The position numbers and the translations under genes were made by a program. The notes under the pieces are model-generated. The model did not search any database, had not been told where the DNA came from, and saw only the letters and a list, made by a program, of their open reading frames with translations. Positions 3,964-5,820 of a DNA stretch of 64,000 bases are shown here, piece by piece. Position 1 is the stretch's first letter, and each line of letters begins with the position of its first letter. The stretch lies in the IMG/VR virus record IMGVR_UViG_2700989507_000006, one strand, 5' to 3'. The stretch comes from a virus. Taxonomy: Duplodnaviria; Heunggongvirae; Uroviricota; Caudoviricetes.

Positions 3964-4652
3964 GCTGCACCATCACCTTTCACTTTCATCAATGTCAGGT
4001 TTCCGCAAAATACGGCACCAGTGTCGATATAATGCTGATTCCAGAATGTCTTCGGGCTTTTCACCGGAGTGTGACCAAAGATAAAACGATCTGCGCCCGA
4101 AATTTCGCCACCAATATCATCCATCGAATCACTGATACGCTCGCGCGCCCAGACAACGTTGAAAAGCGGCACCTCCTTACCGAATTGATATTCATTATCC
4201 GGATAGTCGGCATGGGCTATAACGATAGTTTCTTGCCCGGTGTTCAACTCAATGATATAGGGCAGTCGTCTTACCAACTCCACCAGCGCCCTGACTAATA
4301 TTTCCTGATCAGCGTCCAGCATGAAGAACCATTGACCGCCATTCATTAGCCAGTTATTCACGTTGCCATCAGGACTTAACGCATCGAGCATCAACCGCTC
4401 ATGGTTCCCCATTACTGCCCTGAACCAGGGCATCTGCAATAGTTCCAGACATTCGACATTTTCAGTACCGCGATCGATAAGGTCGCCGACCGATATCAGT
4501 AAATCCTGCGCCGGGTCAAAATCCACACGATGGAGTTCGGACATCAGTCTGGTGTAGCAACCATGCAGATCACCAACAACCCAGACATTCCTGTATTTGG
4601 TACCGTCGATACGGTGATAAATTGTTGGTGCCATCATGTATTCTTCAGCCAT
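3960..4652 (-). CDS. ppp: Ser/Thr protein phosphatase, lambda-PP (calcineurin-like metallophosphoesterase) family
   Basis: 230-aa ORF with GDLHG, GDLIDRG and GNHE metallophosphatase motifs. Confidence 0.85.
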
Positions 4653-5260
4653 TCTTTAAGAGTCATCTGCGGAATACCTCCCATTTTCCCGCATGAAACA
4701 ACGTCAATCTGTTCACGCGCAGACTGGAATAACAAAGGCAGGTGACTTAGATTTTTTGGCGTGCCGCCGGAGTGAACGCGTGGTTCTTGCGTAGCGTCAA
4801 CACCCACCAGGGCTACATGTTTGAATCCGATATGGAAAGCCAGGTTCAGAGCACCATATGCACTATTGCCGCTGGCAATTTCATTCTCATCTTCGCAAAG
4901 GCCGAAATGTGCGGACCAGCGCCATGCCCACCACTCTGGAGAGTTAGTATTTTTTGGCTCCGTGCCTCGTTCAGCCACACGACGGAAGCACAGAACGCCG
5001 TCTCTGACTTCACGTTCTTTAACATCGGGTAGTGCCATGCAATAACAAACACCACGGCGACGGCGGCCACGACCAACGCGCCGCATATTGTCTGGCGATG
5101 GATCAAGTGTGAAAAAATAAGAAGCGCGGTTAAGCCAGTCGATGGCCCCATTGACCGCTATAATCGGCACTCCGCGCGGCGCAACAAAGTTTGCGGCGCT
5201 TGGGCCACTGCCGACGATAATAACGCGATCACTGCCTCTAAATTTATTCTTGGGAAACAT
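4634..5260 (-). CDS. hypothetical protein, paralogue B of a tandem pair
   Basis: 208 aa; [10 protein letters not shown]...IIAVNGA and later VALVGVD motifs align with the upstream paralogue; ATG 5258-5260. Confidence 0.55.
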
Positions 5261-5820
5261 TGAATTGCACTGCTCCTACTTGCATTCAAAATATGTAAAT
5301 CTGCGTGTTTTTTGCGGGTATCCAGGAACTGCTGTTGCCATTTTGAAATAGACACCTGCGTTGGATTCCGTAGTGCTTGAGGGTGCGCGCCATGCCAATG
5401 AAGGCCGTTTTGCAGAGAACAGTCATAGCCGACTAATACCACTACTTCAGCCCCTGATTCAGCAGCCAGACTGATAGCCTGCGCGCCGCTATTTACCCCT
5501 TCCGCCGGTCCACAATATCGCCTGTACTCCAACGAAAATGATTTCGCCGCCGCCAGGTTGGCTGTCACTTTGCGGAACCTCCCTCCCGGTATGGTGGAAC
5601 CGTATTGCTTCCACCATGACAAATCACCGGCGTATAAGGCATAAATGTCATCGAACATCTGCCAGGAATTGTTAACCGCGATGATTGAACAGCCAGTTTT
5701 TTCTATAGCAGCACAGTCCTCACGAGTGAGTGAAGGACCGCTACCGACACAAAAAACAGTCCTAGTCGCCCTGGGTGGTATGTTCATTCTCAGCTGCAAA
5801 TTCAGCCTCCAGGCGAGCAT
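5158..5820 (-). CDS. hypothetical protein, paralogue A of a tandem pair
   Basis: 220 aa (start may be internal ATG at 5787); TVFCVGSGPS...IIAVNNS and VVLVGYD motifs; 3' end overlaps paralogue B by ~100 nt in another frame. Confidence 0.5.
   Translation of the reverse strand: MLAWRLNLQLRMNIPPRATRTVFCVGSGPSLTREDCAAIEKTGCSIIAVNNSWQMFDDIYALYAGDLSWWKQYGSTIPGGRFRKVTANLAAAKSFSLEYRRYCGPAEGVNSGAQAISLAAESGAEVVVLVGYDCSLQNGLHWHGAHPQALRNPTQVSISKWQQQFLDTRKKHADLHILNASRSSAIQCFPRINLEAVIALLSSAVAQAPQTLLRRAECRL

Follow-up and report, generated by a model that had tools for sequence, protein, structure and literature searches.

The question raised by this locus is what two overlapping genes of a well-studied phage encode. 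Within a 64,000-nucleotide stretch of viral DNA, called the window below, a reading made from the sequence alone had singled out two minus-strand open reading frames of 220 and 208 amino acids, which were proposed to be tandem paralogues overlapping by about 100 nt. The window is from a P1-like phage-plasmid with 97.5% DNA identity to P1, and the two frames lie exactly where they had been placed. They correspond to pmgO and pmgP, annotated with an identical 103-nt overlap in the P1 GenBank record AF234172 and, as hdmB and hdmC, in the annotation of P7. These are long-known P1 genes, and knock-outs of them have already been published. P1 has long served as a model phage and is the standard vehicle for transduction in E. 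coli, and still its pmgN-pmgQ operon stands under a placeholder in the records we found: the P1 and P7 entries label the genes "putative morphogenetic function" or "head morphogenesis". Literature searches, which also covered DUF115 proteins of prophages and virion glycosylation, returned no functional study of pmgO, pmgP or pmgQ, and scans of these three and other genes against NCBIfam and PADLOC gave no matches.

The overlap between pmgO and pmgP

The features at the center of this analysis are:

pmgO (hdmB in P7): 5158-5820, minus strand; 220 aa; supported as an open reading frame, by the P1 annotation, by phrog_4603 (4e-74) and by PF01973 (5.7e-5, under the gathering threshold)
pmgP (hdmC in P7): 4634-5260, minus strand; 208 aa; paralogue of pmgO with an insertion of about 35 aa
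Dual-coding overlap of pmgO and pmgP: 5158-5260, minus strand; 103 nt containing the pmgO tail (frame 0) and the pmgP N-terminus (-1 frame)
AGGAG, Shine-Dalgarno-like in sequence: 5273-5277, minus strand; separated from the pmgP ATG by 12 nt

Two start codons are candidates for pmgO, M1 at 5820 and M12 at 5787. In the family alignment, conservation covers a core of residues ~19-201 and does not extend into the C-terminal tail (202-220). The pmgP ATG (5260-5258) arises from caA TGt, where pmgO encodes the Gln-Cys of its conserved xCF motif, while the AGGAG is located within the conserved N-x-S-R codons of pmgO. The overlap encodes the beta1-GSGPS motif of pmgP.

An IMG/VR scan with the pmgP profile yielded only near-identical P1-like contigs, too alike to inform on divergence, and these served as a population test of the overlap. 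Both frames are unbroken in 84 P1-like copies. Variants are sparser in the overlap (5/103) than outside it (129/1084; p 0.033), and the five overlap variants are all non-silent in the pmgO frame, with four of them silent in the pmgP frame. This pattern indicates that selection acts on the pmgP frame within the overlap. The same junction, with the start codon in the xCF motif and the downstream gene in the -1 frame, was found in six further lineages (L003, L087, L088, L095, L099 and phage EP_H11, our locus L101). Shine-Dalgarno-like sequences occupy the equivalent place in L087 and L088, and the overlap in EP_H11 is 37 nt long, as calculated from coordinates.

The region 5158-5260, where the earlier reading had left a frameshift to be checked for, proves to be a genuine overlap of two genes whose junction geometry recurs in distant phages. 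The -1 frame of pmgP, the X_XXY_YYZ heptamers T_TTC_CCA and A_AAT_TTA in the P1 overlap and a natural 376-aa O+P fusion elsewhere would fit programmed -1 frameshifting into an O-P fusion protein, but we reject this reading together with that of a sequencing error as highly improbable, since neither frame is broken in any of the 84 independent copies or in the P1 and P7 references, pmgP is equipped with its own ATG and AGGAG, and the heptamers lack conservation, being absent from L003 and either different or absent in the other loci. With the pmgP start codon set in the -1 frame inside conserved C-terminal codons of pmgO, this ancestral layout would most likely couple translation of pmgP to that of pmgO.

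The conserved overlap also has a practical side, as gene callers routinely omit or truncate pmgP-like genes. Phage EP_H11 lacks an annotation for its pmgP-like gene, and in a Citrobacter rodentium prophage the gene call is truncated.

Homology of PmgO and PmgP

The two proteins share the order of four motifs: VGSGPS (residue 25 in PmgO and 16 in PmgP), AVN (48 and 35), NSG or NSA (NSG at 110 and NSA at 132) and LVGYD or LVGVD (LVGYD at 129 and LVGVD at 151). The sequence-only reading had described both order and spacing as shared. The order holds, while the spacing agrees only roughly, as PmgP has about 35 inserted residues that separate AVN from NSA. A pairwise BLASTP comparison is weak (E 0.003 over 36 aa). 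At profile level, the proposed origin by duplication is upheld: hhalign aligns the two families with 98% probability (E 2e-13) over 160 columns spanning both proteins, and each protein matches the PHROG family of the other. ORF374 and ORF375 of jumbo phage XacN1 each match both profiles.

The O and P types are found as separate genes in Gamma-, Beta- and Alphaproteobacteria, in Bacteroidota, and among jumbo and lytic phages. Because the distinct types range from Enterobacteria to Bacteroidota, their distribution indicates an ancient duplication and not a recent event in P1. Polar residues are invariant in both families (N50, D66, S111, D133, H141/143/146 and R182 in PmgO; N37, D53, S133, D155, H173 and R94/R114 in PmgP), and judging from this conservation both proteins are likely active enzymes.

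Fold and family assignment

AlphaFold models of PmgO and PmgP match the sialyltransferase CstII (GT42), the flagellin glycosyltransferase Maf (DUF115) and archaeal MptE. The AF2 model of PmgO (pLDDT 86.5) gave CstII as the top Foldseek match (9e-5), followed closely by Maf (1e-4); for the PmgP model, the match to MptE is almost as good as that to Maf. Judged by these models, both proteins belong to the Maf/GT42/MptE-like fold superfamily and are predicted to be single-domain, nucleotide-binding Rossmann enzymes of ~200 aa.

Sequence profiles are more selective. A combined O+P profile searched against the PDB matched, within this fold group, only sialyltransferases and Maf: CstII (0.006), Cst-I (0.1), Maf (0.18) and the Pasteurella sialyltransferase 9c08 (0.41). 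These matches are carried by the motifs GxGPS and (N/T)S(G/A)...G-x-D. The O/P profiles matched no pyrophosphokinase in the PDB, including MptE, and PDB searches with the pmgP profile alone or with the O+P fusion protein P0051 returned no relevant matches. Against PF01973 (MptE-like/DUF115), PmgO scores 23.4 bits and PmgP 20.9, under the gathering threshold of 34.6, and the alignments cover only the C-terminal NS(G/A)...GxD part. Relatives score better: 26 of 30 pmgP-family members have E<=0.01 (best 8.6e-7), P0051 reaches 44.6 bits, and precomputed PF01973 matches are present on several homologues. We therefore regard PmgO and PmgP as divergent subfamilies of the superfamily and not as clean Pfam members. 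The earlier guess of a DUF115-type protein resembling nucleotide-sugar or pterin-pyrophosphokinase enzymes was thus right at superfamily level.

CstII and Cst-I are the closest known proteins to PmgO by both Foldseek and PDB sequence search. Like the phage proteins, they have a single Rossmann-type GT-A-variant fold, and CstII shares the N-terminal beta1-G-x-G-P-S-L, a downstream Asn and (T/N)-S-G...G-x-D. The HMM alignments to CstII cover its residues 3-34 and 123-158, and these nucleotide-binding motif residues are invariant across both the O and P families. A flexible loop follows G-x-D in CstII, and the corresponding loop has low pLDDT in the PmgO model. The catalytic base of CstII is His188, and Tyr156 and Tyr162 in its lid bind phosphate. 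The phage families have invariant His residues in the equivalent loop after GxD (H141/H143/H146 in PmgO, H173 in PmgP), a region where residue-level alignment to CstII is unreliable. Identity to CstII is only 12-14%, and CstII is longer (~290 aa compared with ~200 aa) and has a C-terminal membrane-association region that the phage proteins lack.

Maf proteins (for example that of Magnetospirillum, PDB 5mu5) are ~630 aa long, with flagellin-binding domains flanking the DUF115 core, and PmgO and PmgP correspond to the central catalytic domain only. In contrast to the Maf glycosyltransferases, which transfer nonulosonic acids to flagellin, the phage genes have neither a flagellin context nor nonulosonic-acid biosynthesis genes. 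Likeness to archaeal MptE (PDB 8sd5) and to thiamin pyrophosphokinases is at fold level only.

Operon and neighboring genes

The two genes are part of an operon in the order pmgN-pmgO-pmgP-ppp-pmgQ, with an overlap at every junction. The surrounding features are:

Counterpart of the P1 C1-repressor operator Oppp (Op83): 5961-5977, strand not assigned; upstream of pmgN; from the P1 annotation
pmgN (hdmA in P7): 5762-5950, minus strand; small first open reading frame of the operon; supported by the P1/P7 annotation and phrog_2350
ppp: 3960-4652, minus strand; lambda NinI-type Ser/Thr phosphatase; PF00149 (7.9e-16), phrog_246 (1.5e-112)
pmgQ (hdmD in P7): 3262-3963, minus strand; 233 aa; GT8-like (glycogenin-type) retaining glycosyltransferase; phrog_1962 (2e-127)
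pmgM: 5984-6562, minus strand; VRR-NUC-like nuclease of the upstream neighboring operon; PF08774 (3.3e-4, under cut-off), phrog_5702 (4e-27)
dbn: 11756-12754, minus strand; 332 aa; putative GT4-like (GT-B) glycosyltransferase about 6 kb away

The phosphatase, of the calcineurin-like family, and the nuclease are the neighbors that had been recognized from the sequence alone. The 3' end of pmgN, a gene specific to the P1 lineage, overlaps the start of pmgO by 59 nt, or by 26 nt if pmgO starts at M12. The operator region is 98% identical to that of P1 over an alignment of 61 nt. Since a C1 operator is annotated upstream of pmgN, the operon is expected, from this annotation, to be under repression during lysogeny and expressed when the phage grows lytically.

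PmgQ has a DxD motif at D79/D81 and an FHGxPRP motif. Its family profile matches GT8 structures in the PDB at 3e-8 to 1e-3, among them Skp1 alpha-galactosyltransferase (2.9e-8) and glycogenin (~3e-7), and the family shares with GT8 enzymes, to which LPS-core transferases of the WaaI/J type also belong, the DxD and H-x-G-x-x-(K/R)-P motifs. The GT8 Pfam family PF01501 is not reached by PmgQ (best 0.15). Dbn matches Pfam Glycos_transf_1 at 3.7e-5, under the cut-off, and is described in the P1 record as a "possible glycosyltransferase". It is 48% identical (E 2e-106) to the product of L101:5602-6570 of phage EP_H11.

A conserved module in distant phages

pmgP and pmgQ occur together in all 18 sufficiently long loci, 16 of which also have pmgO. 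This makes pmgP the most constant member of the module and pmgQ its constant partner. Carriers come from Enterobacterales, Zhongshania, Commensalibacter, Methylophilaceae, Brevundimonas and Sinomicrobium and include the lytic phage EP_H11 and the jumbo phage XacN1. Only the window and the P1-like loci L085-L087 have the phosphatase gene between P and Q. This gene is an insertion of the P1 lineage and not part of the conserved module.

The accessory genes of the module all belong to glycan-tailoring classes: methyltransferases of the class I, FkbM and TylF types, a GT4-like gene, a phrog_854 glucosyltransferase and a Nucleotid_trans-like gene. The cluster of EP_H11 has the order O-P-[GT4]-Q, its GT4 gene being the Dbn homologue, and L098 has a Dbn homologue near Q-P. 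Natural fusion proteins of the types O+P, P+Q and Q+P were also found. The genes themselves are known and the kind of enzyme we infer for them is ordinary; new here are the association of O and P with PmgQ, often with sugar methyltransferases or a GT4-like, Dbn-homologous gene, and the natural fusions.

The module is found in head operons, beside lysis cassettes, in DNA-metabolism regions and adjoining adhesin genes. In L095 the O-P-methyltransferase-Q set separates the gene of the major head protein from that of the head-tail adaptor. Because its position is so heterogeneous, genomic context does not identify the acceptor. A homologue of phrog_1924, the "minor tail" gene adjoining the module in C. 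rodentium, was sought in the window and not found.

Proposed function

From the comparisons above we infer the chemistry, donor, acceptor and translational coupling considered here. We think it probable that PmgO and PmgP are glycosyltransferases which, together with PmgQ and probably Dbn, build a short glycan from host nucleotide sugars. PmgO and PmgP would carry out glycosyl transfer alongside the GT8-like PmgQ, of the UDP-hexose type, and probably the GT4-like Dbn, with assembly taking place during lytic growth and the host supplying the nucleotide sugars.

The fold of PmgO and PmgP is also common to ATP-dependent pyrophosphokinases, which counts against the glycosyltransferase reading. One or both proteins, PmgP especially, could then be pyrophosphokinases or kinases of the MptE, thiamin-pyrophosphokinase or SteA type that activate a small molecule or sugar, and in P1 they might work with Ppp and Pap. 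We consider this unlikely, though it is the alternative that survives best. Outside the P1 lineage the module lacks ppp, CstII is the top structural match of PmgO, and the sequence profiles match GT42 and Maf and no pyrophosphokinase. Glycosyltransferases and sugar methyltransferases make up the partners and fusion partners, and nothing of the pterin or thiamin pathways was seen near the module.

A literal alpha-2,3-sialyltransferase activity on host LOS or LPS is suggested by the phrog_4603 label and the RefSeq product names, and CstII and Cst-I are indeed among the best structural and sequence matches. Nevertheless, the label is an automated transfer from remote homology, the likeness to CstII is at the level of fold and motifs, and none of the loci examined was seen to have genes for making CMP-sialic acid. 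Most of the hosts, among them E. coli K-12, Citrobacter and Brevundimonas, are not known to produce CMP-Neu5Ac, which further argues against sialylation, and we give this reading very little weight.

Equally improbable in our view are non-enzymatic head-assembly proteins, as implied by the names pmg and hdm. This reading has the historical annotation in its favor, as well as the location of the module inside head gene clusters of some prophages. On the other hand, the models have a conserved enzyme-like nucleotide-binding fold with invariant polar residues, the gene names are absent from the main text, including tables, of the P1 virion proteome paper, and loss of the genes leaves plaquing normal. 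In-frame deletions of pmgN, pmgO, pmgP, pmgQ and ppp have been made in P1, and the five genes identified as essential include none of these; 24 of the 29 P1 knock-outs had no plaquing or antirestriction defect. CRISPRi knock-down gave an EOP of ~1. Both genes, for which knock-out phenotypes had been proposed as a check, are dispensable for laboratory growth.

For the favored glycosyltransferase reading, the leading acceptor candidates would be virion proteins or the LPS and cell envelope. No nucleotide-sugar synthesis genes were seen adjoining the module, so any donor is a guess. CMP-Kdo is a candidate because no other CMP-ulosonic acid is shared by all the hosts. We know of no modified sugars in P1 DNA. 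DNA glycosylation as a target was ranked low, since the published knock-outs left antirestriction unchanged.

A more specific proposal, which we put forward tentatively and hold to be rather unlikely, is that PmgO-PmgP-PmgQ, with Dbn, form a widespread uncharacterised glycosylation system of phages of Gram-negative hosts that uses host CMP-Kdo or UDP-sugars during lytic growth to modify virion proteins or the LPS receptor of the dying cell, with PmgO and PmgP as an obligate, translationally coupled hetero-oligomer. Editing of the receptor on a dying cell would spare the loss of progeny on debris. We are aware of no report of virion protein glycosylation in a phage of Gram-negative bacteria.

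The placeholder could give way to a testable idea: three or four enzymes that together build a glycan, encoded by a module that P1 shares with jumbo phages and with prophages of several phyla. If virion glycosylation or envelope remodeling is its role, this would bear on phage immunogenicity, receptor masking and phage engineering. Mycobacteriophages have gene sets for virion glycosylation, with glycosyltransferases in structural operons. These sets differ from the O-P-Q module in their glycosyltransferase families and in host phylum. They resemble it as phage sets of multiple glycosyltransferases, with or without methyltransferases, that lie in or near structural operons and are dispensable for plaque formation.

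Two overlapping paralogues in the ppp operon

Positions 3000-7000 of the window share 97.5% identity with phage P1 (AF234172); for P1-like phage-plasmids from E. coli, E. albertii and Salmonella the figure reaches 98.9%. The two minus-strand ORFs proposed from the sequence alone are borne out, with an overlap of 103 nt, and are named pmgO and pmgP in the P1 record (formerly orf84a and orf84b, respectively) and hdmB and hdmC in P7. According to the P1 annotation they belong to an operon, pmgN-pmgO-pmgP-ppp-pmgQ, situated behind the C1-repressor operator Oppp; window and P1 are 98% identical across this operator region.

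5762-5950, minus strand: pmgN; its 3' end overlaps the pmgO start by 59 nt if pmgO begins at M1 (5820) or 26 nt if at M12 (5787)
5158-5820, minus strand: pmgO, ORF of 220 aa
4634-5260, minus strand: pmgP, ORF of 208 aa

The neighbours are also as described earlier, Ppp being a calcineurin-like, NinI-type phosphatase and PmgM VRR-NUC-like. Elsewhere in the window, pap (1118-1624, minus strand) is annotated as 'acid phosphatase' and shows no match to classical acid phosphatase; its matches are to PF25109 (5e-12), the HAD phosphatase domain found in polynucleotide kinase-phosphatases, and to phrog_415 'polynucleotide kinase'.

Paralogy and fold

The sequence-only reading had described motifs shared in order and spacing. 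The order (VGSGPS, AVN, NS(G/A), LVG(Y/V)D) holds in both proteins, while the spacing differs, with about 35 extra PmgP residues between AVN and NSA. Pairwise BLASTP detects the N-terminal motif alone (E 0.003). Comparison of family alignments (30 homologues per protein) using hhalign joins both proteins end to end over 160 columns (98% probability, E 2e-13), in agreement with the proposed duplication, and each protein cross-matches the PHROG family of the other. Invariant polar residues are kept in both families, so neither gene resembles a decayed copy.

A tentative assignment to DUF115-type, nucleotide-sugar or pterin-pyrophosphokinase-like enzymes proved right at the superfamily level because of three kinds of matches. 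PF01973 (MptE-like/DUF115) is matched below its Pfam cut-off of 34.6 bits by PmgO and PmgP (23.4 and 20.9 bits), and at E<=0.01 by 26 of 30 pmgP-family members. AlphaFold2 models are confident (pLDDT 86.5 and 94.0, respectively); with Foldseek, the top PDB matches of PmgO are CstII (E 9e-5, TM 0.54) and then Maf (1e-4), and those of PmgP are Maf (9.5e-4), the HPPK MptE (2.7e-3) and sialyltransferases. A combined profile of both families matches PDB sequences of CstII (0.006), Cst-I (0.1), Maf (0.18) and Pasteurella sialyltransferase 9c08 (0.41) through the GxGPS and (N/T)S(G/A)...GxD motifs. That PmgO and PmgP are pyrophosphokinases, as the MptE match could suggest, is unlikely; the combined profile matched no pyrophosphokinases among PDB sequences. 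The PHROGs and RefSeq label 'alpha-2,3-sialyltransferase' for PmgO is probably too literal.

The overlap is dual-coding

Both frames are intact in all of the 84 full-length P1-like copies compared, which, counting the window, amount to 57 distinct sequences. Variable sites number 5 of 103 inside the overlap vs 129 of 1084 outside (Fisher p 0.033). All five variants in the overlap alter the PmgO tail, and four are third-position silent in the pmgP frame. This pattern indicates constraint on the PmgP N-terminus (beta1-GSGPS motif) but none on the final ~20 residues of PmgO, which also lack conservation among homologues.

The caA TGt sequence that encodes Gln-Cys in the conserved xCF motif of PmgO supplies the pmgP ATG (5260-5258), and an AGGAG is located within the conserved N-x-S-R codons of pmgO. 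This junction recurs in relatives where O adjoins P: the start codon spans the Cys codon and the one before it, with P in the -1 frame.

Overlap of pmgO-like and pmgP-like genes in other loci
C. rodentium prophage: 94 nt
Pantoea: 49 nt
Zhongshania: 43 nt, GTG start in cTG TGg
Chimaeribacter: 40 nt
Phage EP_H11: 37 nt (entered for overlap length only, not junction geometry)
Brevundimonas: 7 nt

The overlap in P1 is the longest solely because its pmgO tail is the longest. The intact copies, the identical annotation of the overlap in P1 and P7 and the recurring junction show that the roughly 100-nt overlap is real and old, and not a sequencing error. Two X_XXY_YYZ heptamers lie in the pmgO frame within 5158-5260 (T_TTC_CCA and A_AAT_TTA), at either of which ribosomes could in principle shift by -1 into the frame of pmgP; since these are absent or different in relatives, programmed -1 frameshifting was rejected.

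The pmgP-like gene of C. rodentium (L003:8510-9130) is called 30 codons short and that of EP_H11 (L101:5001-5609, OP688485) is missing from the GenBank record; both miscalls appear to be caused by a start inside the upstream gene. In many E. coli records PmgO is shortened to 166-174 aa (P0002, P0003) and by length would be without the GSGPS motif. A spelling error in the P1 pmgM note, 'putative norphogenetic function', has made 'norphogenetic protein' the RefSeq name of hundreds of PmgO/PmgP homologues.

A conserved O-P-Q module

PmgQ (3262-3963, minus strand) has no Pfam match by itself. Its family profile matches the GT8 structures of Skp1 alpha-galactosyltransferase (2.9e-8) and glycogenin (~3e-7), and PmgQ carries a DxD motif (D79/D81) and FHGxPRP. 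Eighteen adequately long loci (genome-collection matches, two found via homologous proteins, EP_H11 and jumbo phage XacN1) were scanned with O, P and Q profiles; a PmgQ homologue adjoins or is near P in 18/18 and O is present in 16/18.

Gene order of the module
P1-like elements only: O-P-ppp-Q
C. rodentium lambdoid prophage: O-P-Q, between lysis cassette and terminase
Zhongshania: O-P-methyltransferase-Q, between major head protein and head-tail adaptor
Sinomicrobium: O-Q-P-FkbM methyltransferase
Buttiauxella: Q-P-lysozyme-Rz
Lytic phage EP_H11: O-P-GT4-Q
XacN1: O-P-(TylF methyltransferase fused to Q)

A pmgP profile search of 1.84 billion cluster representatives gave 581 relatives at E<=1e-3 (93 at E<=1e-30), among them natural fusions O+P (P0051), P+Q (P0179, P0253) and Q+P (P0229, P0268). 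Taken together, co-occurrence, glycan-tailoring accessory genes and fusions are evidence for a single pathway, resembling glycan assembly, in which O, P and Q work, probably in complex with one another. P1 dbn (11756-12754, minus strand), remarked as a 'possible glycosyltransferase' in the P1 record, encodes a GT4-like (GT-B) putative glycosyltransferase with 48% full-length identity (E 2e-106) to the in-cluster GT4-like gene of EP_H11; a Dbn homologue is also near Q-P in Buttiauxella. Thus P1 appears to carry four glycosyltransferase-like genes across two loci. In two unrelated elements, XacN1 (L102, 66-3650) and Sinomicrobium (L100, 7415-10095), O/P/Q lie directly beside both ribonucleotide reductase subunits, which may be coincidence or hint at a link to nucleotide metabolism.

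Published genetics and possible function

In one study pmgN, pmgO, pmgP, pmgQ and ppp were deleted in frame, none being among the five essential genes it found, and plaquing and antirestriction were unaffected in 24 of its 29 knock-outs (PMC9024508). CRISPRi knock-down gave EOPs of 1.1 for pmgO and 0.72 for pmgP (PMC10695390). Reports conflict for pmgN, where CRISPRi cut plating ~70-fold ('essential') vs the non-essential in-frame deletion; the genes downstream, pmgO and pmgP, could be knocked down by CRISPRi without effect. The pmg gene names are absent from the main text of the P1 virion proteome paper, and no functional assignment of these genes was found in the literature searched.

Annotation of the genes and their overlap already existed, and PHROGs and RefSeq already carry the superfamily label; the predicted enzymes are of a known kind. 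Apparently new, as far as we found in the records and papers examined, are the conserved O-P-Q(-Dbn) module, the natural fusions, the ancestral pmgP start inside the Cys codon and the population evidence for dual coding. The earlier observation is thus confirmed and its interpretation supported.

From the Maf/GT42/MptE-like fold to glycosyltransferase is a step we infer from context. The module flanks examined showed no genes for nucleotide-sugar synthesis, so the donor would have to come from host nucleotide-sugar pools; to our knowledge, CMP-Kdo is the sole CMP-ulosonic acid common to all these hosts. The module occurs in a head operon, beside a lysis cassette, in a DNA-metabolism region and near adhesin genes, positions that fit a virion or envelope acceptor alike. 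The last setting is chromosomal, in Pseudescherichia (L089-L093) and Serratia plymuthica (L004), where O/P/Q lie among inverse-autotransporter/invasin-like and Big_1-repeat genes. In L089 an invasin-like gene of 1178 aa lies immediately upstream of O, and in Serratia O/P/Q also adjoin a holin/lysozyme pair. This setting might indicate adhesin glycosylation or a lysis-cassette-based secretion island.
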